Positions 6,119 through 56,964 of a stretch of DNA of 64,000 nt are shown piece after piece. The DNA is taken from the NCBI GenBank assembly GCA_949296965.1, contig CASFQL010000018.1, positions 3,634 through 67,633 on the forward strand. The letters run 5' to 3'. Position 1 is the first letter of the stretch; the number at the start of each line of letters is the position of its first letter. Made by a program: the position numbers and the translations under genes. The notes beneath the pieces were generated by a model that saw only the letters and a list, made by a program, of their open reading frames with translations, searched no databases and had not been told where the DNA came from. This DNA is from an uncultured Christensenella sp. Lineage in GTDB: Bacteria > Bacillota > Clostridia > Christensenellales > UBA1242.

Positions 6119-6219
6119 GGGGACTTTGTGCAAAAAAGTTTCACTTTTTGCGTGAAATTTTTTATAAATTTCACAGTAGCAATCTTGCTACGGCAAGATT
6201 GCTACTGCACAAAGTCCCC
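6119..6219. repeat. cloverleaf-type intergenic repeat, copy 1
   Basis: Outer stem GGGGACTTTGTGC/GCACAAAGTCCCC encloses three hairpins: CAAAAAGT-TTC-ACTTTTTG, GTGAAATTT-loop-AAATTTCAC and TAGCAATCTTGC-TACG-GCAAGATTGCTA. Confidence 0.85.
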
Positions 6220-9358: not shown

Positions 9359-9439
9359 GGGGCTGTGAATAAATTTGATTTCATCAAATTTCAAACACTT
9401 TCGTGTTTTTTTGCCTTAAAGGCAAAAATTCACAGCCCC
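9359..9439. repeat. cloverleaf-type intergenic repeat, divergent copy 2
   Basis: Outer stem GGGGCTGTGAA/TTCACAGCCCC encloses three hairpins: AAATTTGAT-TTC-ATCAAATTT, AAACAC-TTTC-GTGTTT and TTTTGCC-TTAAA-GGCAAAA. It ends 6 nt from the def stop codon. Confidence 0.75.
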
Positions 9440-18192: not shown

Positions 18193-18375
18193 ACTAAGAT
18201 AAAAAATATTTATATTAAGATAAACAAAATTATATATAAAATTAAAAAAAATCTTTATATTAAGATAAATAAATTTTATATTAAGACAAATAAATTTTAT
18301 ATTAAGATAAATAAATTTTATATTAAGATAAAAATAATCTATATTAAAATAAAAAAACTTTATAGTAGAACAAAA
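18193..18375. repeat. tandem array of ~21-bp repeats (TTTATATTAAGATAAATAAAT), about 7-8 units
   Basis: Three near-identical central units at 18254-18316 are flanked by degenerate units. The 71-aa ORF 18172..18387 is just this repeat read as protein. Confidence 0.85.
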
Positions 18376-18648: not shown

Positions 18649-19896
18649 TCAATCTATTATTTCACATTTTACGCCATCTAAATAAATACTTTTTGCTCTA
18701 ACTTTTAGAATTTGATTGCATTTTGCATTTTGAACATAGCATTTAACATAATTTTCACTAAATCCTTCAAAGAGATTTTGAGAAATTTCTTTTTCAATAA
18801 GAACACTAAAATCTTTATTCAAACAACTTTTTAAATATTCTATTTTTTGTTTTTCTACTATTTCTCTTAATTTATTCTCTCTTTCTTTTATGACTTTTCC
18901 ATTTAACTGTTTTAGTTTACTAGCCCTTGTCCCTTCCCGTGAAGAATATGCAAAAAAGTGGACGGCACTAAATTTTACTTTATTCACAAATTCAAGGGTT
19001 TTTAAAAAATCTTCATCAGTTTCTGTTGGATAACCTACAATAATATCGGTAGTAATTGCAGGGTTATCAAAATATTTTCTTATTAAAGCAACTTTTTCAA
19101 AATATTCTTGTGTAGTGTAGTGTCTATTCATATCTTTTAAGGTTTTATCGCAACCGCTTTGCAAAGACAAATGAAAATGCGGACAAAAATTAGGCATACT
19201 TGAAATTATATTCAAAAAATCATTATTAATAATTCTAACTTCCATAGAACTTAGTCTAATTCTGCAAGGTAAATTTGAAAGGGCTTTCAAAAGAGTTCCA
19301 AGGGCGGGCTTATTATCAATCTTATAATCAGAAACATCAATTCCTGTAAGGACAATCTCTTTACAAGTTTTTGAGAGTTGTGTTGCTTCATTTACAATGC
19401 TTTTTAAATCTCTTGACCTACTAAAACCCCTTAAATAAGGAATAAGACAATAAGAACAATAGTTATTACAACCATCTTGTATTTTTACATAACCACGAGT
19501 TCTAACATTTGTAGCAAGAAAATCATCTTCGTATTCTTTGGATAGTGGAAAAACAAAATTGCCCTTTTTATCAAAAAACTCAAGGATTTTACCTTTTTTG
19601 GCGTTCCCAAAAACATTTCTGACTTGCTTTCTATTTAAAAATTGATTTGGATTATTTTGTGAAGCACAACCACACACATAAATTTTTGCATCTTTATTAA
19701 TTTTTATAATTTTTGATATCATTTGCCTACTTTTTTTTTCGGCTTCTTTTGTTACAGCACAAGTGTTAACTATGTAAATGTCAGCAAATTCAAGTTGATT
19801 TGTCGTTTCATATTTATTTTTTAAACTATTTAACAAACTGTCAATTTCGTATTGATTAACCTTGCACCCTAAATTTAATAAACAAACTTTTTCCAT
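18649..19896 (-). CDS. mtaB: tRNA t6A37 methylthiotransferase MtaB (YqeV-like, radical SAM)
   Basis: N-terminal LGCKVNQYE, radical SAM CNNYCSYC and a TRAM-like C-terminus. Its position between rsmE and rpsU matches Bacillus. Confidence 0.85.
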   Translation of the reverse strand: MEKVCLLNLGCKVNQYEIDSLLNSLKNKYETTNQLEFADIYIVNTCAVTKEAEKKSRQMISKIIKINKDAKIYVCGCASQNNPNQFLNRKQVRNVFGNAKKGKILEFFDKKGNFVFPLSKEYEDDFLATNVRTRGYVKIQDGCNNYCSYCLIPYLRGFSRSRDLKSIVNEATQLSKTCKEIVLTGIDVSDYKIDNKPALGTLLKALSNLPCRIRLSSMEVRIINNDFLNIISSMPNFCPHFHLSLQSGCDKTLKDMNRHYTTQEYFEKVALIRKYFDNPAITTDIIVGYPTETDEDFLKTLEFVNKVKFSAVHFFAYSSREGTRASKLKQLNGKVIKERENKLREIVEKQKIEYLKSCLNKDFSVLIEKEISQNLFEGFSENYVKCYVQNAKCNQILKVRAKSIYLDGVKCEIID

Positions 19897-28040: not shown

Positions 28041-28162
28041 ACTATTTTTTTAAGTTTTTTCAAGTTTTTTATCCCTTAAAAGTTTTAAAGTTTTGTTAAG
28101 TTTTATTAACTTTTTTATAGTTTTATTAAGTTTTTTAAAACTTTTATTAAGATAGATTTTTT
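28041..28162. repeat. phased T-tract array (about 10 units of AAGTTTTNTT, period 9-11 bp)
   Basis: Units include aagttttttc, aagttttgtt, aagttttatt, aactttttt and aacttttatt. It shares the decamers AAGTTTTATT and AACTTTTATT with the array at 31141. Confidence 0.75.
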
Positions 28163-31100: not shown

Positions 31101-31138
31101 TAAAAAAGACTAGAATTTTTTAAATCTAGCCTTTTTTG
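31101..31138 (-). terminator. putative terminator downstream of hemW
   Basis: On the minus strand, GGCTAGA-loop-TCTAGTC is followed by TTTTTTAATTTT. Confidence 0.45.
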
Positions 31139-31140
31139 TT

Positions 31141-31260
31141 AACTTTTATTAAGTTTTATTATATTTTATTATGTTTTATTATCTTTTACTATGTTTTATT
31201 AATTTTTGTTATTTTTTATTATATTTTATTAGATTTTAACATTTTCTATTAGTTTTTTCA
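31141..31260. repeat. strictly 10-bp-phased T-tract array, 12 units (A-N-N-TTTTATT)
   Basis: The units are aacttttatt aagttttatt atattttatt atgttttatt atcttttact atgttttatt aatttttgtt attttttatt atattttatt agattttaac attttctatt agttttttca. The register is exact over 120 bp. Confidence 0.9.
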
Positions 31261-31274
31261 TAAAATGCTTTTCT

Positions 31275-34847: not shown

Positions 34848-34948
34848 AAATTTTGTGCCAAAAGTGTTAACTTTTGAATTAAAATTTAACTTAGTTAAAT
34901 TTTAATAGTTGATATTTTGCAAAGTAAAATATCAACAGCACAAAATTT
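34848..34948. repeat. cloverleaf-type intergenic repeat, copy 3
   Basis: Outer stem AAATTTTGTGC/GCACAAAATTT encloses CAAAAGT-GTTA-ACTTTTG, ATTAAAATTTAAC-TTA-GTTAAATTTTAAT and GTTGATATTTT-loop-AAAATATCAAC. It overlaps the stop codon of the phosphodiesterase gene by 2 nt. Confidence 0.85.
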
Positions 34949-36832: not shown

Positions 36833-36982
36833 TCCCTACAATAAATTTTACATATACTTACAACGAATTTTGAATTCATTTACAATATATCTTCCATACA
36901 CTTACAATATATTTTGCATACATTCACAATATAATTTGCATACACTTACAATATATTTTTCATACATTCACAATATATAATA
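36829..36982. repeat. tandem array of ~22-bp repeats (CATACAYTYACAATATAWTTTG), about 7 units
   Basis: Four near-perfect units occupy 36895-36982, preceded by three degenerate units. The array fills the divergent region between the LRR gene and rarA. Confidence 0.85.
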
Positions 36983-37080
36983 ATAGTTTTTGTAATTTTT
37001 TTGCAAATAAATTAATATATTTTGACATACTTTACTTTTATTGTCATTTGTGTTATCTTTTTTATATGGAATATTTTTCA

Positions 37081-38346
37081 ATGTATAGTAACAAAAAACC
37101 TTTAAGCGAGAGAATGAGACCTACCACATTAGAAGAATTTGTAGGACAAAAGCACATTGTTTCAAAGAACTCTCTTTTAGATAGAGCAATTAGAGCACAA
37201 GTGCTAGGTAGTTGTATTTTTTATGGGCCACCCGGAACGGGCAAAACTACTCTTGCTCATATCATTGCCACTAACTCGCAAGGGGAAATTCAAAAACTCA
37301 ATGCAGTTTCTAGCGGTGTTAACGAAGCAAGAGAAATAATTGACAAGGCAAAACAGGAATTTGAATTGTTTGGCAAAAAGACATACTTATTTTTGGACGA
37401 ATGTCATAGGTGGAGCAAGGCGCAAAGTGATTGTATTTTGCAAGCCATTGAAGAAGGTCATATTATTTTTATTGGCTCTACAACCGAAAATCCCTACACT
37501 AGTATGACTCGCGCTATTGTTTCTAGGTGCAGAGTCTTTGAGTTTAAACCAATAGAAAAGAAAGATATAATTGAAGTCTTAAAAAGGGCTGTGAATGATA
37601 AAGAAAAAGGTCTAGGTGCCCTACCTGTAAAAGTTGAAGATGATGCTTATGAGTATTTTGCCTTTGCTTGTGGCGGAGATGTTAGACAGGCTATTAACGG
37701 GCTTGAACTTGCCGTTAACACTACAAATCTAAACAAAAATAAAGAAATTGTTATAACAAAAGAAGTTGCTAGTCAAAGTATTGGGACTTCTTCTTATAGT
37801 TTAGACTCAACAATGTTCTATGATATGTTGTCCGCTTTTTGTAAGAGTATTCGTGGTAGTGATTCAGATGCTGCTCTCTATTGGTCAAGTAGATTGATAA
37901 AGGCTGGCTGCGACCCTAGAATTATTGCTAGAAGACTGATTGCTCATTCTAGTGAAGATATTGGAATGGCGGATAGTAATGCACTACTACTTTCAACTTG
38001 CGCTCTAATAAGTTGCGAAAAACTAGGCTTGCCTGAGTGTTTGCTTACCCTTTCTCACGCAATTATATATGCCTGTGAAGCGGAAAAATCAAATTCGGTT
38101 TATATTGCTATGTCAAAGGCAACTAGCGATGTCGAAAATTCAAAAGATGATGCAGTCCCAAACAACTTAAAGAATCACCCTTCTATCAATGATGACAAAA
38201 CGGCTGGCTACAAATATCCACACGATTTTGGCGGATATGTTAAACAAGATTACTTGCCAAAATCTCTTAAAGATAGAGTCTACTATACTCCAAGTAATAA
38301 CGGAAAAGAAAGGGGTTTAAAGAGAAAAAAATTTGATAAAGTGTAG
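37081..38346 (+). CDS. rarA: replication-associated recombination protein RarA/MgsA (AAA+ ATPase)
   Basis: Motifs RMRPTTLEEFVGQKHIV, Walker A GPPGTGKTT and Walker B LFLDECHRW. The ATG at 37081 gives the usual short N-terminus; alternatives are 37066 ATG and 37048 TTG. Confidence 0.9.
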   Translation: MYSNKKPLSERMRPTTLEEFVGQKHIVSKNSLLDRAIRAQVLGSCIFYGPPGTGKTTLAHIIATNSQGEIQKLNAVSSGVNEAREIIDKAKQEFELFGKKTYLFLDECHRWSKAQSDCILQAIEEGHIIFIGSTTENPYTSMTRAIVSRCRVFEFKPIEKKDIIEVLKRAVNDKEKGLGALPVKVEDDAYEYFAFACGGDVRQAINGLELAVNTTNLNKNKEIVITKEVASQSIGTSSYSLDSTMFYDMLSAFCKSIRGSDSDAALYWSSRLIKAGCDPRIIARRLIAHSSEDIGMADSNALLLSTCALISCEKLGLPECLLTLSHAIIYACEAEKSNSVYIAMSKATSDVENSKDDAVPNNLKNHPSINDDKTAGYKYPHDFGGYVKQDYLPKSLKDRVYYTPSNNGKERGLKRKKFDKV

Positions 38347-38449
38347 GAACTTTGTGCTGTAAAAATTTTATAAAATAAAATTTTTACTTTTGAAATTTTG
38401 CATTCCTGCAAAATTTCAAACAAAAGTGGAACTTTTGGCACAAAGTTCC
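38346..38449. repeat. cloverleaf-type intergenic repeat, copy 4
   Basis: Outer stem GGAACTTTGTGC/GCACAAAGTTCC (12 bp) encloses GTAAAAATTTT-ATAAAAT-AAAATTTTTAC, TTTGAAATTTTGCA-TTCC-TGCAAAATTTCAAA and CAAAAGT-GGA-ACTTTTG. It starts on the last base of the rarA stop codon and is followed by TTTTTTATTT. Confidence 0.9.
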
Positions 38450-38549
38450 TTTTTTATTTATTAAGAAAGTTCTATAAATCTTAAATAATTTTATATGGAC
38501 TAGCAAATTTTGACAAATTTCAACATATAAGTTAGAAAGGAAGGTCAAA

Positions 38550-39251
38550 ATGATTGTTGAAAGTTTTATAGCCTTTATGAACAAAATAATGCTATTTAGT
38601 GCGTATGTAAACAATGCTTCAAATTTTCCAAAGCCACTAACAGCCCAGCAAGAAAAAGAATACTTTAAAGCATACAAAAATGGTGACAATAAAGCAAAAG
38701 AAAAATTAATCTCACACAACTTAAGATTAGTTGTTCATGTAGCAAAAAAATACAGTGGGACCGCCGAGAGTGATGATTTAATATCAGTAGGCTCAATAGG
38801 TCTAATAAAGGCAGTAAACACATACGAATTTGACAAAAACACACAGTTTTCCACCTATGCAGCAAGATGTATAGAAAATGAGATTTTAATGTTACTACGA
38901 ATAAATAAGAAACATATCCCCGTTATGAGTTTAAACGAAAGTTTAGGGAAAGATAAAGAAGGAAATGATGTTGCAATACAAGATATCATACCAGACGAAA
39001 ATGAAAATGTTGTTGAAAGAGTTGAGAACTCAGTTTTAACTGAAAAATTACTAAAAATCATTGAAAAGTCTTTAAGTCACAGAGAATATCAAATTATGTG
39101 TATGAGATATGGACTTAATAACACACCCGTCTACACCCAAAGAGAAATTGCTAAAAAATTAAATATTTCTCGTTCGTATATAAGTAGACTTGAAAAAAAA
39201 TCACTTGATATACTAAGAGAAAAGACAGAAAAGGAAGATATTTATTACTAA
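38550..39251 (+). CDS. sigK: sporulation sigma factor, pro-sigma-K type
   Basis: The N-terminal pro-sequence and junction IMLFSAYVNNASNFPKPLT resemble B. subtilis pro-sigma-K as recalled (..VFLVSYVKNNAFPQPLS). Further matches are HNLRLVVHVAKKY, TYAARCIENEILM and LGKDKEGNDVAIQDII, and an SD AGGAAGG lies upstream. The gene is uninterrupted. Confidence 0.85.
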   Translation: MIVESFIAFMNKIMLFSAYVNNASNFPKPLTAQQEKEYFKAYKNGDNKAKEKLISHNLRLVVHVAKKYSGTAESDDLISVGSIGLIKAVNTYEFDKNTQFSTYAARCIENEILMLLRINKKHIPVMSLNESLGKDKEGNDVAIQDIIPDENENVVERVENSVLTEKLLKIIEKSLSHREYQIMCMRYGLNNTPVYTQREIAKKLNISRSYISRLEKKSLDILREKTEKEDIYY

Positions 39252-39787: not shown

Positions 39788-40134
39788 GTTAGGCAGACAG
39801 GTGGTCGCAGTCCAATCGTAAAGGTTGGAGTGAGGAAAGTCCGAGCTTCATAGAACAGGGTGCTGAGTAACTCTCAGTGAAGGTGACTTTAAGGAAAGTG
39901 CAACAGAAATAGACAGCAAAGTAAAATTTGCAATGGTGGAAAGGCGGAGTAAGAGCCCACCGACAAGTTAGTGATAACTAGTGCCATGTAAACCCCACCC
40001 GAAGCAAGATTAAAAAGAATCGTTATAAAGTTGTTCGCTAGATTCTTTAAAAATATCGCTTGAACTATCTGGCAACAGATAGTCTAGATAGATGACCATC
40101 AAATACAGAACTCGGCTTATAGTTTGCACTAATC
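39788..40134 (+). ncRNA. rnpB: RNase P RNA (bacterial type B)
   Basis: Universally conserved P4 halves GAGGAAAGTCCG (39832-) and ACAGAACTCGGCTTA (40106-), plus GTAAACCCCACCCGAAGCAAG. The 5' GTTAGGCAGAC pairs with the 3' GTTTGCACTAA (P1). The ends are approximate. Confidence 0.9.
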
Positions 40135-40170
40135 ATAACTACTTGCGTATGCAGGTAGTTATGTTTTTGT
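40135..40170 (+). terminator. rho-independent terminator of rnpB
   Basis: ATAACTACTTGC-GTAT-GCAGGTAGTTAT is followed by GTTTTTGT. Confidence 0.7.
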
Positions 40171-42881: not shown

Positions 42882-43826
42882 TTACAAAACATATTTTATC
42901 TTTTTTATACTGTCCGTTTCTTCAAAAGTCTTTGGACTAACAACTGTATCTGGGTAGACATAAAATCTCATACCCTGACAAGTAAAGAAACTGACCATAT
43001 TAAAGACCACAAAAGTAAATGCAGTAAGAGGTAAAGTTATTATTAACGAAAGAGTAAACGAAAAAACAGCAAAGATTAAGTTTACAACAAAAGCAATAAT
43101 AACAAGTAAAATACAAGTTGAGAAGATGCTAAAAAATTTTTTAAAAACACACTTAAAATTAGTTTTTAGTGCATAAAAAGCATTGTGATTAAAGACCGCT
43201 ATTGCAGGAAGCCAACAGGCAAACAAAGAATACTTTAAAGCAACAACACAAAGCAACACACCCAACAATAAAATATCTAATAAATAATACAAAAACACCC
43301 CAAGCGTTGCAATTTTTATAATTGAATAAATTAAAAAAATAATAAGAACATTGAGTGGAAGCAAAACAATAAACCTTGCTAAACTATAAAGTAAACTCTT
43401 GCCAATGTATTTAATATATTTTACCGTCCAACTATATTTTACATGACTTGTCATATATCCATATAAAACTTCTGCATTTGGAACAAGTGCCAAGTTTAAT
43501 AAAAATGGAAACATAAATATAATCCAAAAGGATAAAAAGACATAATTTGGAATAAATTGCGAATTTTGAGTTAAAACATTCCAAAAAGTTTCATTAACTT
43601 GGTCTATTGAATAGGCTGTTGTTTGTGGTTTTGAAGAAAAAAAGTTATTTAGAATAGCAAAAAAATCATTGAAAACATTTGCTTCATTTAACTTATTTAT
43701 TATTGGCATAGCAATAACTGTGCAGACTAATAAACTAAGTAAAATACAAATTACATAGTATAATAAAGACTTCCACACATTTGAAAAATTTGTTATCAAC
43801 AATCTAAATGTATTTCTAAAAATCAT
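42882..43826 (-). CDS. polytopic membrane protein (hypothetical, 314 aa)
   Basis: Six or more hydrophobic segments are visible. No family was recognised. Confidence 0.6.
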   Translation of the reverse strand: MIFRNTFRLLITNFSNVWKSLLYYVICILLSLLVCTVIAMPIINKLNEANVFNDFFAILNNFFSSKPQTTAYSIDQVNETFWNVLTQNSQFIPNYVFLSFWIIFMFPFLLNLALVPNAEVLYGYMTSHVKYSWTVKYIKYIGKSLLYSLARFIVLLPLNVLIIFLIYSIIKIATLGVFLYYLLDILLLGVLLCVVALKYSLFACWLPAIAVFNHNAFYALKTNFKCVFKKFFSIFSTCILLVIIAFVVNLIFAVFSFTLSLIITLPLTAFTFVVFNMVSFFTCQGMRFYVYPDTVVSPKTFEETDSIKKIKYVL

Positions 43827-44207
43827 TTATATAACCTTTTTATTTACAATTAACAACCTTGAAAAAATTATAATTTATTTCGACAATAAAATCAACTAAA
43901 ATGATATGTTTTATTTGTTTTGATAATATTTACTGTTTAATTTATATTTATATGTTTAATTTTTTAGAAAAATAATAGTTTTTTGTTTTAATTAAATGTA
44001 TAAAATCGTAAAGGTTTTTATCTCATCAATTTTGTTATATAACAAAAATTTGTGTTTTATTTTGTCTTACTTAGAAGTTTTTACAATTCATTTTACTATT
44101 ATTTTACTTATATTATATTTATTATTACAAATATACTTTATAACCTATTAAAATTTAACTTTATGAAGTTCATAGAACTAATTATATTTACTGCAACTAA
44201 ACATGTT

Positions 44208-44301
44208 GGGGCTTTGTGGTCAAAAGTGAAACTTTTGTATGAAGTTTTTTTAAAAAAACTTCATAGTAAAAATTTTTCAAATTTTTACACCACAAAGCCC
44301 C
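44208..44301. repeat. cloverleaf-type intergenic repeat, copy 5
   Basis: Outer stem GGGGCTTTGTGG/CCACAAAGCCCC encloses CAAAAGT-GAA-ACTTTTG, ATGAAGTTTTTTT-AAAAAAACTTCAT and GTAAAAATT-TTTCA-AATTTTTAC. Confidence 0.9.
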
Positions 44302-44395
44302 TTTCCCAAATATAGTTTTTTACCAACTAATAAATTCTACTACTAATAAAAATAAAAAAAAGAGAGTGCAAAAATACTCACACTCTCCAAAAAAA

Positions 44396-44788
44396 TTATT
44401 TATCATTATCTAACTTATCTTTCATTGCCTGCTTTATATCATTTTTAGAAACTTTTCTTGACTTTACTTTAAGGACGCCAAAACAAACAAGTAAAGACAA
44501 AGCAAAAGCACAAACATCTATAATAATATTAGTTTGCAAATTAACACCAAAAACAAAACAAAGTGATTGAACAAATCCTATAACTAAACAAATAACAGTA
44601 ATCCAAAAAGATAAACTTGTGAACTTATCACTACTATTTTGCTCTAATTCATAACTAGAATCAATTTCTTCACTTCCTGTTAAAACTGATGAATTTTCGT
44701 TACCATTTTTAGTAAGATTTTCTTCAATATTATTAATTGTTTGTTGTTGTGTTATGTCTAAATTATTTTGATTAACTTCATTTTTCAA
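44396..44788 (-). CDS. small membrane protein (2 TM, hydrophilic N-terminus), possible holin partner
   Basis: C-terminal TM pair FWITVICLVIGFVQSLCFVFGV / VCAFALSLLVCFGVL. It overlaps the bhlA-like gene by 11 nt. Confidence 0.5.
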   Translation of the reverse strand: MKNEVNQNNLDITQQQTINNIEENLTKNGNENSSVLTGSEEIDSSYELEQNSSDKFTSLSFWITVICLVIGFVQSLCFVFGVNLQTNIIIDVCAFALSLLVCFGVLKVKSRKVSKNDIKQAMKDKLDNDK

Positions 44789-45005
44789 TTTGTTTATCCC
44801 CCTTTTTAAGTAAGGTCGAACGAATTTCCTTAATTTCGTCTTTTATATCTTCAACAATATCTAAATGTTGGTTTAACTTTGAAATTGTATCTTGGTATTT
44901 TTTTTCTCTCTTAGCACTATCCTTTAACTGATAGACAAGCAAAGAAACAAATAGCACTGCCCATATACCATTTGCCAAAGCCTGATTTAAAATTTCTTCC
45001 CACAT
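44778..45005 (-). CDS. BhlA/UviB-family holin-like protein
   Basis: 75 aa protein in which NGIWAVLFVSLLVYQLKDSAKREKKY matches the BhlA pattern (QGPFAVLF..LLFY..K...ERE.K) followed by a coiled tail. Confidence 0.6.
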   Translation of the reverse strand: MWEEILNQALANGIWAVLFVSLLVYQLKDSAKREKKYQDTISKLNQHLDIVEDIKDEIKEIRSTLLKKGDKQIEK

Positions 45006-45084
45006 AAAACTAACTTAACTGTTTAGAATCTTTCTTAGTCGCTTTCTTATTTTAATTGGATTAATTTTTTGTTTTTTCATAATG

Positions 45085-46569
45085 CTACTCTAAAATTTTA
45101 AAGTTCATTTCAATAGAAGAAATTTTTACAACTTCTTCATTTGAAGTTATTTCAAAACTAAATTCTTTTCCTGTTAAGTTAACTCTAATTATGTTAACTC
45201 TTTTATTTGGGACTATATTAAAAGTTTTAGACTTATTATCATAATTTATTTTAAGTTCAAAAGGACTAGTGCATATAACCTTAATATCTTTTAAAATTTT
45301 TTTATGCTCTAGGTCATTAAAAACCAAATTAGTGCTAACAAATTTTTTTGTTAAAATTTGCCCATTATTTTTACCAGAATTATCTAAACACCAAAGTCTA
45401 TTTCCACCCCTTATTAAAAAGACTAATCTTTTAAAGAATAGATAATTTACAGAAATCATTGAACAAATATCAATGTTTCCTAAAATGTTAAAATCTCCAT
45501 TTTCAAGGTTATATTCTACAAGAGAATTGTTTGTAGACTCCTCACTTGATGTTTCTAATGGTAAATCATAACTTTCGTCCAAATTTAAGTTACAAGCAAT
45601 ATAAAGTTTATTGTCATGATAACACATAAGAGAAGCCTCTTGGCTACATCTTGAAATTCTATCTGACAAAATTCCCTCTACTTTCTCAACATCATAGCCA
45701 TCAAAAAAGTAAAGTCCGTCTTGTTGTAAAAAATAAATTTTATCGCCACAAACACAAGCGCTTGAACAATAAATTCTTTGACCTGCATCATAAATGTTAC
45801 TTGTAGTATAATCTGACTTTAAATATGTATTTATTTTACTTATACCTTGGTCCCTAAAAACATAAACATTTTCCATAAATGAAAATAAATTTTTTAGTTC
45901 CCCCTTGTAGTCATTGAGTTCTAGCATACCTGCTTCTTCTTGGTCAAGGGAGTCTTTTCTCCAATCAAGCGGGTTACAGTTTGCACTATATCTTACAATA
46001 TAATCCCAAGTTGTATCAATTGCGAAAAGTCTTTCATTATGGAAACAAACACTTTTAAATCTAGGTGCCGTGCTAACGACATAAGGGTCATCATCACAAT
46101 ACCAAACTAAAAGGTCATCGTCTTTTGAAGAAAATCCCATAACATCATCGCCATCAATTCTAAAATTAATTCCATTTGGTTCAGATATAAAGGTGTGATT
46201 TAAAGCATAATAGCCTTCAGCCCAAAAAAATAGTGGCGTAGCATAAATTTTTTTATCACTGCCAAGGATAACGAGCAAATACATAACACTGCTATTTTTG
46301 TTGCTATAATATTTATATTTATAAAGTTTTTTAGCAACAACCGGCATTTCGCCTCTTGCTTCAAACAGGTTTTCTGAATGAGGGGTTTGCATAAGAGGTA
46401 TTGTTAATTCTTTAATACCATTTCCCTGAACTAATGCACCATCTACTACTTTTAAATTATAGCAATATTTCGGGTTAATATAACTATCATTAAACTCATT
46501 AAGCGAACTAAGGTTAGTTGAAAATTTTGTAATTAAGATTTTATAATCTTTGTAATTTTTATTATTCAT
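45085..46569 (-). CDS. phage structural protein, beta-propeller-like (possible short-tail or stabilisation protein)
   Basis: Repeated strand motifs (ERLFAID, VYVFRDQGISKI, DKIYFLQQDGLYFFDG, NKLYIAC). The ATG at 46569 overlaps the upstream TGA (TGATG) and follows AGGTGGGAG; a GTG at 46578 is the alternative. Confidence 0.55.
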   Translation of the reverse strand: MNNKNYKDYKILITKFSTNLSSLNEFNDSYINPKYCYNLKVVDGALVQGNGIKELTIPLMQTPHSENLFEARGEMPVVAKKLYKYKYYSNKNSSVMYLLVILGSDKKIYATPLFFWAEGYYALNHTFISEPNGINFRIDGDDVMGFSSKDDDLLVWYCDDDPYVVSTAPRFKSVCFHNERLFAIDTTWDYIVRYSANCNPLDWRKDSLDQEEAGMLELNDYKGELKNLFSFMENVYVFRDQGISKINTYLKSDYTTSNIYDAGQRIYCSSACVCGDKIYFLQQDGLYFFDGYDVEKVEGILSDRISRCSQEASLMCYHDNKLYIACNLNLDESYDLPLETSSEESTNNSLVEYNLENGDFNILGNIDICSMISVNYLFFKRLVFLIRGGNRLWCLDNSGKNNGQILTKKFVSTNLVFNDLEHKKILKDIKVICTSPFELKINYDNKSKTFNIVPNKRVNIIRVNLTGKEFSFEITSNEEVVKISSIEMNFKILE

Positions 46570-47183
46570 CACTCCCACCTACGCGCTTTAATATGAAAAT
46601 TTTTGTTTAAGCAACAATCAACTCCATTTAAAAACTCGTTCTTAAAATATGTTGCGTCATCAAAGATACCAGAGAGTAAATAATATTCGCCAACGACCCC
46701 CATAGCAAGAATTTTTGCACCAATAAAATTAAATTCATTAACTTTGTCGTTAAGAGTTGAAACAAAAGGAATATAACTAAATTCAATACAAACAGGAACA
46801 TTCGAGTAAAAATTTACTTTATCGTTCTCTATTTTAAAATCAACATTACCAAACTTGTTAAAAATTCTAATTATCTTTATAACATTTGCGTGAATATCAC
46901 TCAAATTTATAACTGTTTGTCCAAGACAATCATAAGAAAGCACTTTTTTAGGTTTAAATTTTGTAGTTGCTAACTCGTGAAGAACGCTATTTAATGACAA
47001 CATCATTTTAGTAAAATCTTTTTGGGCTTCCACATTTTGAGTTTCTTCATTTTGTGTATTATCAGTCTGCGACCCTTCATTTTGTGAAACACTACCTGTT
47101 TCTTCGCCTTCAAAAATAGGTAAAAGTTCGTCATCTAAGTCTAAATAGCCACTAGCAAGTTTTAATATTTCTAAAACAGTCAT
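46569..47183 (-). CDS. phage head-associated protein (hypothetical, 204 aa)
   Basis: Strong SD AAGGAGAAAGG and a position after the capsid gene. The N-terminal half is acidic. Confidence 0.5.
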   Translation of the reverse strand: MTVLEILKLASGYLDLDDELLPIFEGEETGSVSQNEGSQTDNTQNEETQNVEAQKDFTKMMLSLNSVLHELATTKFKPKKVLSYDCLGQTVINLSDIHANVIKIIRIFNKFGNVDFKIENDKVNFYSNVPVCIEFSYIPFVSTLNDKVNEFNFIGAKILAMGVVGEYYLLSGIFDDATYFKNEFLNGVDCCLNKNFHIKARRWE

Positions 47184-47234
47184 ACCTTTCTCCTTTTATA
47201 AATTTTAAAAAAAGAGCAAGAAAAATGGGCTAAT

Positions 47235-47609
47235 TTATATCCATTTTGTTTTATTTATATTATTAAAAGTTAAGTCCCCACCTTTTTTATCTGCATATTC
47301 TAACATATCGTTAAGTAATGAAATGTTTTTGCTTCTTAACAAATCTTGTTCTTTTTTTTGCAACTTTTCATTAGACATTTCAAGTTCAGTTAAAATCTGT
47401 TTACTTCTTCTAATATGAGTTAAATATGCTTTTTTAAGTGCAAAACTTGTTAATTTTGTGCCAATATTAAAAGCGTAAGAGTTTTTAAAAGTTACAAAAT
47501 ACTTCTTAGTTTTTTTAGAATAATAAATTTTATACTCTCTATCTATTTGACTTATCCTTTTAGAAATATTAAATAAATCTCTTTTTACTTGATATATGAA
47601 ATTATCCAT
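47235..47609 (-). CDS. hypothetical phage protein (124 aa, basic)
   Basis: An SD is present and the gene lies directly downstream of the capsid gene. Confidence 0.5.
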   Translation of the reverse strand: MDNFIYQVKRDLFNISKRISQIDREYKIYYSKKTKKYFVTFKNSYAFNIGTKLTSFALKKAYLTHIRRSKQILTELEMSNEKLQKKEQDLLRSKNISLLNDMLEYADKKGGDLTFNNINKTKWI

Positions 47610-47633
47610 TTTCCTGCCTTTTATAAAAATGAA

Positions 47634-48797
47634 TTATGATTTTACTATGTTTGAAATTTTTCCTTGCCCTGCTGGTCTATCACAAATAAGTTCAGCATAT
47701 TTTACCAAAGTAGCAGAATAAGTTGGAGTTGTGCTAGATGGAATTAAAATGCTTCCATTTTCAGTTTCAAGCCATTCCCAATCGCAAAGTTGATGTAAGA
47801 CAAAATCTTTTGAGTTAAGCAAATACATTGTCCCGTCTTCGACAAATCTTTCATAAATAACAGGTATTCCTGCATAAGTCATTGCCTTATATCCACCTTC
47901 CAAAACAGTAGTATCAATGTTTCTTCTAAAATTTGAAAGATAAGTTTGATATGCAGTTCTTACATCGCCAGATACGGCAATAAAGTCAACCTGCTCGCCT
48001 GTTTCTTCTTCAATAGAATTAAGTGCATTTTGAATTAAAGCATCACTAACTTGATTTGAAGTGCTACTATCATTAATATATGGATATAACCACTTATAAT
48101 TTGCTCTATCTACACCATAAATTACTGAATTTTCAGCACTTGTATCAAAAATTCTTTTTATTCCTGTAATTTCGTTGTCTTTTGAAGCACAAGCATAGAC
48201 TTTATCACCGTTAATAAAATCGTAAGTTTGGTCAAAAGTTACCTTTTTTGCCTTTCTATCTACATATGTAATAGTAAATTCAGTTTTTACAGGACTATTT
48301 GAAGAATAGATGTCAACTTTCATACCCTCGACTAAATTCTTAACACTATCAAAAGTTACATCGCTTTCATCAACAACAGCAGTCGCTACAAGGCCTGTGC
48401 CATCGCCATAAAGCATACGACCTAGGTTAAAAGCACTTGATTTAATAAGACTATCCATTTCATCATTTAAAAGATTTACAAAAGCACCTGTGTCTGACAT
48501 ACTTGCCCTAATAGCCTTGTCTGAAAGTGCGATTGTCCCATATAAATTTTTCAAACTTGTTTTAAATTGTAAGAATTTGTGAGAACTTGCTTTTGGAAGG
48601 TCGCCTGTTTCAGTTGATGCCGATATGCCACCATTCAAGCCATATGGTGCAAGTTTAATAATTTCTTTTCCATAAACATCTTTACTCGATTGCTTTATCA
48701 TAGATAAAAATGCGTTAGATTTTACATTAAGTTGTTCACTTAAAACGCCTAAATAAACAGATTTTAAAGCGTTTTGTGCAGAAGTTAAAGTTACCAT
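47634..48797 (-). CDS. phage major capsid protein (HK97-fold type)
   Basis: 387 aa protein with SD AAGGAGA, positioned after the scaffold gene. The GRMLYGDGTGLVAT and ALSDKAIRAS regions are typical of capsid families. Confidence 0.7.
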   Translation of the reverse strand: MVTLTSAQNALKSVYLGVLSEQLNVKSNAFLSMIKQSSKDVYGKEIIKLAPYGLNGGISASTETGDLPKASSHKFLQFKTSLKNLYGTIALSDKAIRASMSDTGAFVNLLNDEMDSLIKSSAFNLGRMLYGDGTGLVATAVVDESDVTFDSVKNLVEGMKVDIYSSNSPVKTEFTITYVDRKAKKVTFDQTYDFINGDKVYACASKDNEITGIKRIFDTSAENSVIYGVDRANYKWLYPYINDSSTSNQVSDALIQNALNSIEEETGEQVDFIAVSGDVRTAYQTYLSNFRRNIDTTVLEGGYKAMTYAGIPVIYERFVEDGTMYLLNSKDFVLHQLCDWEWLETENGSILIPSSTTPTYSATLVKYAELICDRPAGQGKISNIVKS

Positions 48798-48849
48798 TTT
48801 TTTCTCCTTATATTTAACTTTTTTGTTTTTAAAACTATTTTACTAAAAG

Positions 48850-49344
48850 TTATTTATTACTAGTAAAAAGTTCTTTAACTATTCTTTCTGCCTCCTCCAA
48901 AGTCTTAGGTTTGCTTTGCGGACTAACTAAAACATTGCTTCCCCTATCAACACCTATTAACTTTGGAGTTGGTGAAAGATTGAGATTATCAATATAATTT
49001 GCAACCACCTTATCTTTTAAGGCTTGGTTAGACAAAATATATTCTAAAATTCTCTTTTCTTTATCTTCTTTTGTAAGAGAATTTTCTTCTTGCTCAACAA
49101 GTTCTTTTGGTGAAGATTTTTCTTCATTATCATTTAGAGTTTTTTGTAGAGCAGCAAGCGATTGACATTTTTTTGTGTAATCGCTTTGTAAATTGTTATA
49201 GGCATTTAATAGACTAATTGCGTCCTTAAATTTGCCTAATTTGGAGCCATTATCATCATTTTTAGACCCTTCATTCTCAATTTGCAAAATTCCTTTGCCT
49301 TGTCCATCTGTGATATTTGGTTGTTCCAGAATTTCATTATCCAT
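48850..49344 (-). CDS. putative scaffolding protein
   Basis: 164 aa acidic, helical protein between the portal and capsid genes, with SD AAGGAGA. Confidence 0.5.
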   Translation of the reverse strand: MDNEILEQPNITDGQGKGILQIENEGSKNDDNGSKLGKFKDAISLLNAYNNLQSDYTKKCQSLAALQKTLNDNEEKSSPKELVEQEENSLTKEDKEKRILEYILSNQALKDKVVANYIDNLNLSPTPKLIGVDRGSNVLVSPQSKPKTLEEAERIVKELFTSNK

Positions 49345-49633
49345 AAAATAATCTCCTTTATAATAAAAAATTTAATGTAATTAATATTTAATTATTTATA
49401 ATTAATTTAAAATCTACAAACTATAAAAATAATTTTGAAAATGAATTTTTAACTAATTTAGTTATGATAAAAACTGATATTACAAAATTTGAAATAAAAA
49501 TTGATAAATAATGATAATTATTTGTAAAATTTTATTGGTTTTTTAAAAAATTTATAAAAATTTGTTTTTAAATAATATAAAAAGTATCATAAAGAAATAA
49601 AAAGTTTTTTTACTTTTTAAATAAAAACTAAAA

Positions 49634-51211
49634 CTAAATATTTATTCCAAAAAGTTCTAAAATTTTTCTCTTTGCTTCTTCTTCAAAATTTCCATTTTCA
49701 TCTCTAAAAATATTTGAAGATAAAAGTTTTAAAATATTATCTCGTTTTGTAGATAAGCTTTCAGTAAGAACGCAATCACTAACAAATACAATGTCTTCAA
49801 GCCCTAAATCACTATTTTTAAAGTATTTAATACTGATTTCTTTCTTGTCATTTGAAATTTTTACAAGTCTAGGAAGAACGGCAAACTGTTTATATAATCT
49901 CAAAATCATTTTCGCTAAACTTTTTACAGCACCATCAATTTCTTCTATTGTAATATTTAACCTTGATGAATCTTGTTCAATAAGCAATTCAAGTGCTGTC
50001 CCGCTTAAAGAATTTGCACTAAATTGGTTTGTTAAGATATTGGTAACACCGCTAATTTCACTAAATTCATTTAGTAAACTTTCTTCTTCATCATCAAAAC
50101 AATTTGGGAGAGTTTCTTCACTTAAAAATTTTGGAGCATTCCCTCCCCTTTTATAAACTATTACTTTGCCAGGTTCTAGTCCGTCTTGGACAAGACTATC
50201 TATATCTACACTTCCATCTTCAACTGTTAACACTCCCATACTAATACGGTTAAGGTATTCGTGTTTTCTATTTTTCACAGCATTGTATGCCCTTTGAATT
50301 GGAATGATTTTATCTATGACACTTTTACCCCAGAAGCACCCTGCAATTGGTATACAAGTTTGTTTAATAAATGGGAATCCTCTTTGTCCATCAGGTAAAT
50401 TAACAAAAGGAAGTTCTCCTAGATAAAGCAATTTGTCTTCGCAAACAATAATTAACCGTCCATTTGGAAATTCTTGTGAAGGCATTTCATATTTTTCAAT
50501 AATGATAGCATGGTTATGTTTACACCCAGAAGAAAGTGAAGTTGTAGTATAATCAAAAATGTCAATATCTCTACCCTTCACATCTATTCCCCAAATATTT
50601 TTGATAGCCTTTACACTGTATGCTTTTGCATGAATAATACTTTCGCAGTCATTTATATTTTCGCAAAAATTATTATCTGGGAAAATTTCAAAAGGAGAAA
50701 CAACACTTATATCGACTTCCCCTTCTTTCACATAATTGTTATCATTATTATAAATCTTTTTACCAATAGTGGAATTCCAAACAACTTTATAAAAACTTGT
50801 ACCTGTTATTTCGCTCCACTTTATTGCATTTGAGATAGATTTAGACAAATTTAGTTTCTCATAAACTGACCTTAAAATATCTTGCGACAAGTCGGCAATT
50901 TTTTGGTCATCTATTGATGAACTTGCAGGAAGAATATCCATTTCGGGTTTAACAGCGGTAAGTTTTGAAATTCTGTTTTCAATTAACGGGGCAATATGAT
51001 TGAAAACTTCTCTTTCTTGCCAATAGTAATTTTTTTGATTATCTTCAATATCACTTAAAATGTTAATGCTAGTGAACTGATTACCTATAAAAAAATTATT
51101 ATTGAGTCGCCACTGTGCTTCAAAAGGTTTTCTTTCCTTTTGTCTATTTTCAAAATCTTCCCTAACAGATTTAACTAAATCTTCAACAAAATAATCTTTT
51201 TTCTTTCTCAT
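49634..51211 (-). CDS. putative phage portal protein
   Basis: 525 aa protein in the canonical position between terminase and scaffold/capsid. The call rests on size and order. Confidence 0.6.
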   Translation of the reverse strand: MRKKKDYFVEDLVKSVREDFENRQKERKPFEAQWRLNNNFFIGNQFTSINILSDIEDNQKNYYWQEREVFNHIAPLIENRISKLTAVKPEMDILPASSSIDDQKIADLSQDILRSVYEKLNLSKSISNAIKWSEITGTSFYKVVWNSTIGKKIYNNDNNYVKEGEVDISVVSPFEIFPDNNFCENINDCESIIHAKAYSVKAIKNIWGIDVKGRDIDIFDYTTTSLSSGCKHNHAIIIEKYEMPSQEFPNGRLIIVCEDKLLYLGELPFVNLPDGQRGFPFIKQTCIPIAGCFWGKSVIDKIIPIQRAYNAVKNRKHEYLNRISMGVLTVEDGSVDIDSLVQDGLEPGKVIVYKRGGNAPKFLSEETLPNCFDDEEESLLNEFSEISGVTNILTNQFSANSLSGTALELLIEQDSSRLNITIEEIDGAVKSLAKMILRLYKQFAVLPRLVKISNDKKEISIKYFKNSDLGLEDIVFVSDCVLTESLSTKRDNILKLLSSNIFRDENGNFEEEAKRKILELFGINI

Positions 51212-51415
51212 AACTTTTTCCTTTTTTTTGATTTTAATTAAAACTTTTAAAAACTCGTAATTTATAATGACTAAACAAATGTAAAAACTTTTTATTAGTA
51301 TAGTAATCTTTGATAAATTGTTATCTAAACTTGCATTTTAACAAATTCTTATGGGTTTAAGTTAAACAAACTATTTAGACCTTTAAAAAAATAATTTATA
51401 AATAAAAATAAAATT

Positions 51416-51727
51416 TTAACTTTTGTCTTTTAATAATTTAAGAAGTCTTTCTTTTTCTAATTCCAATTCTTCATCGCTTAAAGATGAAAGATTTTGAGAA
51501 TTTGTGTTCATATCAAATAAAATTTTAATAGAACTTAAATCAGGTGCGTGATTTTTTGTAGTTACCTTTTGACTTTTTAAAATCTTTTTCCCATTGTTAT
51601 CTAAAATAAATTCTTCAACTGTTTCGCTAGTAGAAACTCCCTTTGCAAGATTAATCAAGGAATCTATCAAAATTTTTTCTTGTTCTTCTAATACTTTATT
51701 CTTACTTTCGTCCTTACTTTTCTTCAT
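51416..51727 (-). CDS. hypothetical acidic protein (103 aa)
   Basis: Intact ORF between terL and portal, with a coiled C-terminus LSDEELELEKERLLKLLKD. Confidence 0.4.
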   Translation of the reverse strand: MKKSKDESKNKVLEEQEKILIDSLINLAKGVSTSETVEEFILDNNGKKILKSQKVTTKNHAPDLSSIKILFDMNTNSQNLSSLSDEELELEKERLLKLLKDKS

Positions 51728-51806
51728 TTTTTAATCCTTATTAAAAAAACAACAGTTCATCTTTAAAATTTTTCTTATTAAAAATATATAAAATTTTAAT
51801 TATAAT

Positions 51807-53231
51807 TTAATTCCAATTCTTTCTTTGATTTCTCAGTGCTATTTTATCCTTATGTTTTTCAAGTGGTCCTTTTGGTCTTATATGGGCGTTAGGTTTGGTC
51901 ATCAAATAATATCTTAATTCATCAAGGCAGTGGTCATCTTTTTTTATAGGATTATCACCAGCACCCCAGAAATATGTTTTAAACTCTCTAATTAAATTCA
52001 CACAATTACTGAAAATAAATAACTTAGATTCATTAAGAGAATTTCTTAAATAACTTTTAACCTGAGCAATGCCTGAAAACAAATCTTTGTTAACCTTAGT
52101 ATTAACATTAATTCCTCTTTCAAAGAAAAGTTCTGCCACACTTTTAACACCATTCAAAGTTCTTTGCCCAGCAGCACTATCAATGTAGGCTTCATATCTT
52201 CCGTTACTATCTTGCTTCCAATCTAAAATCTTGCATATCTCTTTTATTTTATTTGCATGATAGTCAATATCTTTGTTTGCTTCAAAGTGTTCGGCAATTA
52301 CAAAAACATTACCATCATAATCAACTGCATACCAATGACAAGCAAGCGGATTATTAAGCCCGGGATCTATTGATATAGAGTCATACCAATCTTTTGGGAC
52401 GCTAAAAGGTTCTATAACATTAACTTCACTATCAAATTCTTTATAAACTAACCCCGTAGAAGACATAAATCTACCATATTTTCGTGCTTCTAAATCATCT
52501 TTTGAAAGAGATTTTTCAAAATATTCAATTTCTTTCTTATCAAGGAAAGGATTATCCTTCCACTCCATTTGTTCAAACCAAATTTCGCTGTCATTTTTAG
52601 TATTTAAAAAAATTTCATCATACACCCAAGTTAAACCCTTTAATGGAGTCATTGTCCCAAACAAATCTCCCTTTTTATCAAGGACTCTCATTTTACATTC
52701 TAAATAAATTTCAAAAGGCGGTTCTTCGTCAAACCAAACAAAATCTAAACTTGTCCCTTGAAACTTTTCTCTACCTTGGTCGCAACTTTTAAAGCCAATA
52801 GTAGAAATTCCGCCAAAAATATTCTTAATTTTTATATAATCAATAATTCCGCTTTCAGGGAAATCTTTTTTGCCTTGAAGCATTACAATTTCTTGTATCC
52901 AAAGAGGGTTAAGATAGTGCAAAATTTTCTTTTGTGAGACATCTCTTTGAACTTGTTTTGACAAACTAACTACCCAACCACTAACATTTTTTTTATTCTC
53001 TCTAAAAGGGTGATTCCCCCTTGCCATATATATTGCTTCTACTGCACCACATTCAGTTTTGCCTGTTCTATTACCACCAAAAACCCACCTATTTCTCTTT
53101 TGATTTTTATGAAAAGCAATTTGTTTTAAGTGTTTTGTTTTCCCACAATTATATAATGATAATTTATCAAACTTCTTTCTTTTTGAAATTTCATTTAAAA
53201 TCATATTAAGTTTGTAAATAATTTCTCTCAT
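51807..53231 (-). CDS. terL: phage terminase large subunit
   Basis: Walker A FGGNRTGKTE, Walker B LDFVWFDEE and a C-terminal RNaseH-like nuclease region (SIDPG...DD). The ATG at 53231 follows AAAGGTGA. Confidence 0.85.
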   Translation of the reverse strand: MREIIYKLNMILNEISKRKKFDKLSLYNCGKTKHLKQIAFHKNQKRNRWVFGGNRTGKTECGAVEAIYMARGNHPFRENKKNVSGWVVSLSKQVQRDVSQKKILHYLNPLWIQEIVMLQGKKDFPESGIIDYIKIKNIFGGISTIGFKSCDQGREKFQGTSLDFVWFDEEPPFEIYLECKMRVLDKKGDLFGTMTPLKGLTWVYDEIFLNTKNDSEIWFEQMEWKDNPFLDKKEIEYFEKSLSKDDLEARKYGRFMSSTGLVYKEFDSEVNVIEPFSVPKDWYDSISIDPGLNNPLACHWYAVDYDGNVFVIAEHFEANKDIDYHANKIKEICKILDWKQDSNGRYEAYIDSAAGQRTLNGVKSVAELFFERGINVNTKVNKDLFSGIAQVKSYLRNSLNESKLFIFSNCVNLIREFKTYFWGAGDNPIKKDDHCLDELRYYLMTKPNAHIRPKGPLEKHKDKIALRNQRKNWN

Positions 53232-53528
53232 TAACTTCACCTTTCGACAAAAAAACTAAAAATAAAATTCTTGATAAAATGTAAAATTTAATTAATAAGT
53301 TCAAAAGAAAATTTATAAGCAAAACACCTTAAATAAATTAAAAAAGTTAGAGAGTATAAAGTTTAAATTATTAAATTTAGTTAATAATTATAAGTGCTAA
53401 CTTTTTCATCTTTTTTTAAAAGTATTATGGTTTAATATTTTACTAAAATTAAGTTAACTAAATTTTCTAAAGATTTTAAAATTTATAAATACAATTTCTT
53501 TTATAAAGACTAAGGAGGCAATTCTAGT

Positions 53529-54414: not shown

Positions 54415-54506
54415 GAACTATGTGCAGTAAAAATTTTTATAAAATTTTTACAGTGAAATTTTTAAATAAAATTTCACACAAAAGTGAAACTTTTGGCACA
54501 TAGTTC
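54415..54506. repeat. cloverleaf-type intergenic repeat, copy 6
   Basis: Outer stem GAACTATGTGC/GCACATAGTTC encloses GTAAAAATTTT-TAT-AAAATTTTTAC, GTGAAATTTT-TAAAT-AAAATTTCAC and CAAAAGT-GAA-ACTTTTG. It is followed by CTTTTTTAAAAAA. Confidence 0.9.
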
Positions 54507-55908: not shown

Positions 55909-55998
55909 AACTATGTGCCAAAAGTTTTACTTTTGTGTGAAATTTTAACTAAAATTTCACAGTAAAAATTTTTATTAAAATTTTTACAGCACATAGTT
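55909..55998. repeat. cloverleaf-type intergenic repeat, copy 7
   Basis: Outer stem AACTATGTGC/GCACATAGTT encloses CAAAAGT-TTT-ACTTTTG, GTGAAATTTT-AACT-AAAATTTCAC and GTAAAAATTTT-TATT-AAAATTTTTAC. It is nearly the inverted copy of copy 6. Confidence 0.9.
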
Positions 55999-56871: not shown

Positions 56872-56964
56872 GACTTTGTGCTGTAAAAATTTTAGCAAAA
56901 TTTTTACAATGAAATTTTAAGCATTAAAATTTCATATAAAAGTGAAACTTTTAAGCACAAAGTC
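56872..56964. repeat. cloverleaf-type intergenic repeat, copy 8
   Basis: Outer stem GACTTTGTGC/GCACAAAGTC encloses TGTAAAAATTTT-AGC-AAAATTTTTACA, ATGAAATTTTAA-GCA-TTAAAATTTCAT and TAAAAGT-GAA-ACTTTTA. Confidence 0.9.

Follow-up and report, generated by a model that had tools for sequence, protein, structure and literature searches.

Intergenic nested-palindrome repeats that fold into a four-way junction in an uncultured Christensenella species

The DNA analysed here (the window) is a 64,000-nucleotide stretch of contig CASFQL010000018.1 (positions 3,634 to 67,633; assembly GCA_949296965.1) from an uncultured Christensenella sp., with a G+C content of 28% for the source DNA. The adjacency of SigK and RarA, and proteins whose best matches are to uncultured Clostridia MAGs, likewise place the organism in uncultured Clostridia. 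The window is part of scaffold_36 of ENA entry ERZ16268208, and we extended it by 4.6 kb and 8.1 kb to give a reconstructed region of 76.7 kb. Between the rarA and sigK genes lies a copy of a dispersed intergenic repeat, the subject of this report. A first-pass annotation, made from the sequence alone, had listed eight copies (here c1 to c8), each with an outer stem enclosing three hairpins (a, b and c), and the extensions contained four more (n1 to n4), giving 12 elements in 76.7 kb. These are listed below with the strand on which the hairpins read a-b-c, the score in bits for R1 (a covariance model built from the seven window copies c1 and c3 to c8), and the distance of the element from the upstream stop codon.

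6119..6219, minus strand: c1; fold -55.6 kcal/mol, z -12.3; R1 89.4 bits; divergent hairpin a stem GTAGCAATCTTGC; 356 nt from the rpe stop (6575)
9359..9439, orientation not confidently assignable: c2; 12-bp outer stem GGGGCTGTGAAT and three hairpins, z -9.7; match in the architecture scan described below, no R1 match; 6 nt from the def stop
34848..34948, minus strand: c3; R1 69.3 bits; the TAA stop of a GDPD-family gene takes its AA from the first two bases of the element; 0 nt
38346..38449, plus strand: c4, the focal copy, whole element; R1 82 bits; 0 nt
44208..44301, minus strand: c5; R1 95.2 bits; approximately 50 nt past the terminator of the upstream holin-like gene; 95 nt
54415..54506, plus strand: c6; R1 88.3 bits; between convergent genes and followed by CTTTTTT; 83 nt
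55909..55998, minus strand: c7; R1 88.8 bits; 53 nt past the ssb stop and followed by TTTTT
56872..56964, plus strand: c8; R1 90.4 bits; 88 nt past the stop of a minus-strand deacetylase gene and oriented against that gene
-2734..-2640 (window coordinates), minus strand: n1, in a flanking extension; 0 nt
-824..-729 (window coordinates), plus strand: n2, in a flanking extension; 71 nt
65788-65880, minus strand: n3, in a flanking extension; 429 nt
70413-70505, minus strand: n4, in a flanking extension; 46 nt (from a 52-aa open reading frame)

When the eight window copies were folded singly, all eight gave a multiloop that carries exactly three simple hairpins and is closed by an outer stem of 10-13 bp. 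This bears out the architecture that had been proposed for the same eight intervals. Only 0-2 junction bases were left unpaired, and 85-89% of bases were paired. Fold energies ranged from -32 to -56 kcal/mol, compared with about -10 to -18 kcal/mol for dinucleotide shuffles, corresponding to z-scores of -7.0 to -12.3, and none of 200 shuffles was as stable. The unit is 81-104 bp long (typically ~95 bp) and contains four distinct palindromes, with helix arms of 7-14 bp and loops that are not conserved. In the focal copy, the order of segments is GGAACTTTGTGC-T-(GTAAAAATTTTAT...ATAAAATTTTTAC)-T-(TTTGAAATTTTGCA...TGCAAAATTTCAAA)-(CAAAAGT GGA ACTTTTG)-GCACAAAGTTCC, followed by TTTTTT, and the single-copy fold places its parts as follows.

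38346..38357, plus strand: outer stem, 5' arm (GGAACTTTGTGC); its initial G doubles as the final base of the rarA TAG
38359..38387, plus strand: hairpin a, 13 bp
38389..38420, plus strand: hairpin b, 14 bp, with the variant stem TTTGAAATTTTGCA
38421..38437, plus strand: hairpin c, CAAAAGT-GGA-ACTTTTG
38438..38449, plus strand: outer stem, 3' arm (GCACAAAGTTCC)
38450..38455, plus strand: run of six T directly 3' of the element; the sigK start is 95 nt further on

An alternative local pairing is available in c4, in which the outer 3' arm pairs with GGAACTTT (38428-38435, comprising the loop and 3' arm of hairpin c) to form an 8-bp terminator-like hairpin before the T-run. Read by eye, the same alternative hairpin reaches just 4-5 bp in most other copies.

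Membership of the family was examined both by architecture and by sequence. A scan that is blind to sequence (an inverted 7-mer 50-150 nt apart, a fold consisting of an outer stem plus two to four simple hairpins, and at least 78% of bases paired) returned the 12 three-hairpin elements and one unrelated two-hairpin object from the 76.7 kb, compared with nothing at all from five dinucleotide shuffles. Seven copies could be oriented (c1, c3, c5 and c7 on the minus strand; c4, c6 and c8 on the plus strand) and showed a mean column identity of 74%, and the consensus fold of these seven aligned copies contained 41 pairs, 17 of them with compensated changes. A search of the window with R1 recovered exactly these seven copies, at 69-95 bits and E values of 1e-12 to 1e-17, and nothing else. 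The copy missed by R1, c2, has a similar start (GGGGCT-GTG) and an interior unrelated in sequence. The proposed eight-copy family therefore consists of seven copies that form one sequence family and an eighth, c2, that belongs to it by architecture only. A repeat with a shared fold, well above chance expectation, is thus a matter of observation, and the eight window copies together fill ~7% of the intergenic DNA of the window.

Covariation was assessed with 12 distinct sequences, 11 from this genome and one from a sister species described below. Standard pairs occupied 97.5% of the 480 cells of the alignment, two-sided changes were found at 23 of 40 pairs (in 49 cells), and none of 500 shuffles reached any of five covariation measures. 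Sliding the 3' partners by 1-3 columns reduced pairing to 31-56%. All four helices covary, with hairpin c varying at one pair only, in the sister-species copy. Given that pairing has been kept through two-sided changes in all four helices, architecture outweighs primary sequence in this family, as the first-pass annotation had proposed from the differing stems of individual copies.

The manner in which the stems change was equally distinctive. One-sided (wobble) states occupied ~4 cells, compared with the 49 cells with two-sided changes, and a tally copy by copy over 12 copies gave ~490 Watson-Crick pairs, two G-U pairs and no internal mismatch. The two strands adopt the same topology with nearly equal energy, whether folded as RNA or as DNA. 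The near-identical copies n3 and n4 differ only in fully compensated stem changes and in loop bases. Selection on an RNA helix leaves room for G-U intermediates on the strand concerned. Palindromes that are strictly Watson-Crick and equal folding of both strands therefore point to a constraint on DNA rather than on one RNA strand. What is already established about quasipalindrome mutagenesis and about the evolution of REPINs leads us to infer that such a constraint could act on a folded single strand of either polarity or could arise from correction or flipping templated at the palindromes. The loop of hairpin c, which reads GAA in five copies and TTC, exactly the reverse complement, in two others, fits flipping or templating of this kind.

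The copies tend to lie directly 3' of genes. In n1, c3 and c4, the upstream stop codon is completed by the element itself, through its first base or bases, and the ends of the open reading frames confirmed that c4 begins on the G of the rarA TAG, that c3 supplies the AA of the phosphodiesterase TAA, and that c2 lies 6 nt from the def stop. The range of 0-135 nt that had been given for all window copies holds for c2 to c8, which are within 0-95 nt, but not for c1. Canonical terminators intervene between gene and element in three cases: a hairpin with T-run at 44388-44361 between the holin-like gene and c5, a terminator-like hairpin at 6352-6332 between rpe and c1, and a terminator at 1251-1270 of locus L025 between the upstream gene and n4. 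A location within the 3' untranslated region (UTR) is therefore not obligatory.

The family appears in close relatives and has left little trace elsewhere. Copy c4 is identical in a 98%-identical strain (locus L002), and other samples of the same species contain the same copies in identical form. Synteny with a sister genome (GCA_949290565.1; SSB protein 80% identical) is complete between the glycosyltransferase 28 (GT28) gene and the portal gene, and in 20 syntenic kb of that genome R1 found one good copy (67.3 bits), in which hairpin c has a compensated change and one pair is G-U. The copy sits in the divergent GT28/gyrB spacer, where the window genome has none, and the sister genome has no copy at the sites of c6, c7, c8 and n3 within the same 20 kb. 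Copy frequency is about one per 6-8 kb in the window species and lower in the sister species, with an approximately five-fold difference in density. Unconserved positions together with this difference in density are typical of a repeat that is mobile or turns over rapidly. No R1 match was obtained from relatives whose RarA is 80-88% identical, in the 3-21 kb available for each. A weak match in a relative with 66% Rpe identity (L033 2145-2219, AAATTTTGTGCC-CAAAGT...; R1 14.5 bits, E 0.28), located 57 nt past rpe and oriented against that gene, may be a decayed copy, although this is doubtful. In larger collections, we used exact patterns that left either hairpins a and b or the whole 5' part free. 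The 24-base pattern ACTTTGTGC-N50-80-ACTTTT-N1-3-GCACAAAGT gave one chance match, without hairpins, in Prevotella among 185,579 species genomes; a 21-base pattern gave 14 loci in JGI metagenomes and one in IMG/VR, none of which was confirmed by R1; and blastn of c6 against plasmid and phage collections gave no match. The family is thus at least genus-deep and lineage-restricted, and its positions are not conserved.

Consistent with the statement of the first-pass annotation that the repeat matched no Rfam family it knew, no Rfam family reached its gathering score on the repeat, and the sole such match in the window was RNase P RNA. In a permissive search, TD-2 (RF03162, clan CL00124) scored 40.6 bits with c4 (also in L002) and 39.5 bits with n4 (E 4e-5 when 200 nt were searched), short of its gathering score of 48.7, and no other copy matched TD-2 at E ≤0.5. 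These matches are full-length and lie on the c-b-a strand with an alternative first hairpin: in place of the native helices, the alignment has the outer 5' arm and the 5' arm of hairpin c paired with each other, and a 6-bp hairpin stands in for the outer stem and hairpin c. The motifs TD-1 and TD-2 are made of hairpins and occur in 28-36 copies, only in Treponema denticola, with covariation, no known function and some instances overlapping on opposite strands (PMC1950547). TD-2 shares with the present repeat the character of a multi-copy, species-restricted, AT-rich array of hairpins with covariation, but its consensus places three hairpins one after another, with a linker of 14 nt and without a closing stem, in place of a closed four-way junction, and the host phylum is different. 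TD-2 is the nearest Rfam family, below threshold, and TD-1/TD-2 is an analogue of this element rather than its family.

By description, the bcr1 repeat is the closest known analogue in Firmicutes. In the account of the Okstad 2004 and Klevan 2007 studies given in a review (PMC3184786), bcr1 is a repeat of ~155 bp in the Bacillus cereus group, with a closing stem and independent stem-loops, compensatory changes, unconserved positions and transcription. It resembles the present repeat as an intergenic, dispersed, "cruciform-like" repeat of a single Firmicute lineage whose stems show compensatory changes and whose positions are not conserved, and differs from it in having two internal stem-loops and a longer unit instead of three hairpins in ~95 bp, 5-bp direct repeats (duplication of TTTAT) instead of none at 12 copies, and imperfect stems of variable stability instead of stems that are perfect on both strands. 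The B. cereus group, to which bcr1 is described there as confined, is a taxonomically distant host, and this comparison is one of description and not of sequence.

REP and REPIN sequences, which are mobilized by RAYT (Y1/HUH) transposases whose genes typically have such repeats on either side, are similar in density, in their location just 3' of genes and in the lack of target duplication. In E. coli, REPs occur about once per 8 kb. Their palindromy is likewise kept by compensatory change, and their sequence families are species-specific (PMC3116915, PMC2817692). A REP, however, is a single imperfect palindrome of 20-40 bp, often with a GTAG/CGTC tag, and a REPIN consists of two inverted REPs forming one long hairpin, whereas the present unit has four nested perfect palindromes in 81-104 bp, a four-way junction and no tetranucleotide tag. 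With its perfect terminal inverted repeats of 10-13 bp, small size and lack of coding capacity, the repeat has the attributes of a miniature transposable element bounded by inverted repeats (MITE). Classical MITEs (Correia/NEMIS, RUP, BOX, ERIC) are similarly ~100 bp in size and intergenic with terminal inverted repeats, and are co-transcribed with neighboring genes and occasionally show terminator or promoter activity (reviewed in PMC3184786). They form one long imperfect hairpin and are usually flanked by target-site duplications, whereas the present repeat is branched, with perfect stems and no duplications. The target-site duplication of Correia elements is TA.

Several other candidates were rejected. 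Derivation from IS200/IS605 elements in the manner of PATE was ruled out by the perfect inverted-repeat ends and by left flanks that share no motif, given that PATE has subterminal hairpins without terminal inverted repeats and inserts 3' of a fixed tetra- or pentanucleotide. A tRNA-like element was discarded because ARAGORN finds no tRNA or tmRNA in the window, the arms are 7-14 bp and the loops are not conserved. The Cuckoo RNA family is not relevant, being made up of tandem hairpins from alphaproteobacteria that lack multiloops. Some copies contain hexamers resembling promoters, but neither their strand nor their spacing is consistent, and their counts are near shuffle expectation in the regions containing c6-c8 and n3-n4, with somewhat higher counts in the two remaining regions; an internal promoter or mini-inverton was rejected on these grounds.

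With confidence slightly better than even, we lean to the view that these elements are new, lineage-restricted, nested-palindrome dispersed repeats of the REP, MITE and bcr1 kind, that the four-way junction is a property of the DNA, and that some copies have probably been exapted as 3'-end structures. Either single strand, of DNA or RNA, folds into the four-way junction with almost no unpaired junction bases. The small, non-autonomous element would multiply and turn over as DNA; the form relevant for spread may be the folded single strand, as with substrates of the REP/REPIN and IS200/IS605 types, or hairpin-templated correction may keep the arms identical, or both. Copies would persist where they are harmless, directly 3' of genes. 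More tentatively, those that are co-transcribed might act as 3'-end structures, and the copies with a U-run (c4, c6, c7 and n4) would probably be terminators or blocks to 3'-exonucleases. Among the three roles suggested by the first-pass annotation, a REP-like or MITE-like repeat fits best. Within 77 kb, neither the open reading frames scanned nor the flanking gene tables (L021, L025) contained the RAYT/Y1 transposase (PF01797) that it envisaged. We consider improbable a more far-reaching version, according to which the repeats would represent a new class of folded-DNA mobile unit, with a single-stranded four-way junction serving as substrate for a structure-specific enzyme not yet tied to mobile DNA, templated correction or flipping at the palindromes, and co-oriented copies domesticated as branched terminators or stabilizers.

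A number of observations weigh against the view that the family is a DNA-level repeat. No transposase of any kind was present among the window open reading frames tested or in the flanking gene tables, over the same 77 kb; the junctions of the 12 copies showed no target-site duplication or consistent direct repeat, and neither flank a conserved tetranucleotide; and no exact empty site could be aligned with the sister species, the spacers being too diverged. Copy c4 and the next 100 nt are unchanged between strains that differ by 2% overall, which is compatible with constraint in situ. Nine of the 11 orientable copies are co-oriented with the upstream gene (one-sided binomial P 0.033), including both copies that follow plus-strand genes; a Fisher test against orientation by replication only gave P = 0.11. 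Within the window, the a-b-c order in the sense of the upstream gene was found, as claimed earlier, in six of the seven typable copies, with c8 as the exception. On the a-b-c strand, a run of five or six T follows four of the 11 copies (c4, c6, c7 and n4), and no copy has such a run on its other side (binomial P about 0.012); the first-pass annotation had noted those of c4 and c6, both confirmed, and missed that of c7. An intrinsic-terminator scan flagged only the local alternative hairpin of c4, and the other seven orientable copies lack a U-run. The orientation bias and the T-run association are only modest, but an element acting purely at the DNA level would not be expected to produce signals that depend on the strand, and they therefore count against one.

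On account of these two signals, an RNA-level, cis-acting 3'-end module is a serious rival, even if on balance unlikely. The junction would block 3'-to-5' exonucleases and, with a U-run, would terminate transcription, and selection on the RNA fold would keep the copies in place. The strong covariation, the invariance of c4 between strains and the position of c2, c3, c4 and n1 only 0-6 nt from stop codons also agree with such a module. The near absence of G-U pairs and the equal folding of both strands do not, since RNA-selected helices normally tolerate wobble; nor do the location of c5, c1 and n4 behind canonical terminators, the antisense orientation of c8 and n2 relative to the upstream gene, the lack of positional conservation in the sister species, and a branched 90-nt structure that would be unusual for a terminator. 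Two G-U pairs in ~490, equal strand energies and three copies behind terminators thus weaken the 3'-UTR module, one of the candidate roles in the first-pass annotation, as the primary reading. The four perfect palindromes per unit and their strict Watson-Crick symmetry on both strands would also suit sites in double-stranded DNA, that is, palindromic operator arrays or cruciform-prone sites for dimeric or junction-specific proteins, with a role in nucleoid organization, site-specific recombination or inversion, or replication-fork signaling. Perfect inverted outer arms could invert the interior, which would explain the two copies oriented against their genes as well as the flipped GAA/TTC loop. 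We nevertheless regard this as quite improbable: the stems of hairpins a and b differ freely between copies, which speaks against operators recognized by sequence; the copies have no linked recombinase or regulator among the window open reading frames tested and the flanking gene tables; and AT-rich arms of 7-14 bp extrude poorly unless supercoiling is strong. Least probable is that the copies are genes for trans-acting small RNAs comparable to TD-1/TD-2 of Treponema denticola. The full-length matches to TD-2, which is likewise multi-copy, species-restricted, three-hairpin and covarying (PMC1950547), would favor this possibility, but they fall below 48.7 bits, lie on the c-b-a strand and have a different first hairpin, and TD-2 has no outer stem. 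In addition, the hexamer counts are near shuffle level for the c6-c8 and n3-n4 regions and only somewhat above it in the other two, the unconserved loops leave no obvious seed region, and three copies overlap stop codons.

Dispersed structured repeats such as REP, BOX, Correia, bcr1 and the TD motifs shape mRNA ends, genome rearrangement and strain typing, and their mechanism of spread is mostly unknown. The repeat alone opens no long-standing question. It is an unusually clean case, with four perfect helices, many two-sided changes and virtually no wobble intermediates in a lineage known only from metagenomes, and so provides a sharp test of whether covariation reports RNA function or the maintenance of palindromes at the DNA level. 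This is a caveat for RNA-motif discovery pipelines that take covariation as proof of a structured RNA. R1 can also be used as a marker for tracking this Clostridia lineage.

The surroundings of rarA have been rearranged. In the window (37048-39251), sigK lies 3' of rarA on the same strand with c4 in between, and the same arrangement is found in the 98%-identical strain. In all of the more distant relatives (L003, L004, L028 and L029), sigK is upstream of rarA and divergent, and because the order differs, c4 lies at a rearrangement junction. In L003 (82% RarA identity), an apparent four-way junction after rarA (11381-11491) turned out not to be a conserved copy but to belong to a different repeat: two inverted matches to Rfam Gut-1 (43.8 and 42.9 bits, below the gathering score of 50) occupy 11351-11535 just 3' of rarA, and as a pair they mimic an outer stem with three hairpins. 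Other repeats built from hairpin arrays seem to be present at the 3' ends of genes in related gut Clostridia. On the 5' side of rarA, between it and an LRR_5 gene, positions 36837-36990 of the window hold ~6.5 units of a 22-bp repeat (TACAATATATTTTGCATACACT), and the presence of one extra unit in the 98%-identical strain indicates that the array is polymorphic in copy number within the species.

Around seven copies (c1, c2, c5, c6, c8, n1 and n3), AAACTA(A) tends to occur on the 5' side and (T)TTAGTT(T) on the 3' side, within ~30 nt, with an extra inverted pair in n3. AAACTA is only ~1.5-fold enriched on one strand of the whole contig (103 occurrences compared with 67 expected).

Copy c5 lies inside a phage-like cluster (42882-53240), and c6 just beyond it. 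The cluster contains a holin-like gene (44396-44788), a P22/SU10-type portal gene (49634-51211), a large terminase gene (51807-53240) and many open reading frames without a Pfam match. Phage-like genes of the same kinds (P22/SU10-type portal, holin, large terminase) are also located in L003, close to RNase J, and in L030, beside ssb/gyrA, these being relatives with about 80% identity in RarA or SSB. The cluster may be a long-resident or domesticated prophage, or a unit resembling a gene transfer agent, rather than a recent prophage.

The window also contains further arrays of short repeats. Phased 10-bp arrays (TTTTATTAWG / TTTTGTTAAG) of 10-11 copies are present at 31134-31263 and 28046-28150, in spacers upstream of genes without a Pfam match, and at 2870-2987 of L028; an array of the same kind lies directly 3' of rarA in a sister species, where the window has c4. 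The 10-bp phasing suggests intrinsically bent DNA. At 18173-18364, nine tandem 21-bp units (TAAGATAAAWAAATTTTATAT) separate a radical-SAM/UPF0004 gene (18649-19896) from a 131-aa open reading frame without a Pfam match (17525-17920), and this array looks like iterons. Finally, the RNase P RNA is of bacterial class A (39789-40136, plus strand, 272 bits) and is followed by a terminator consisting of a 13-bp hairpin and a T-run at 40134-40163.

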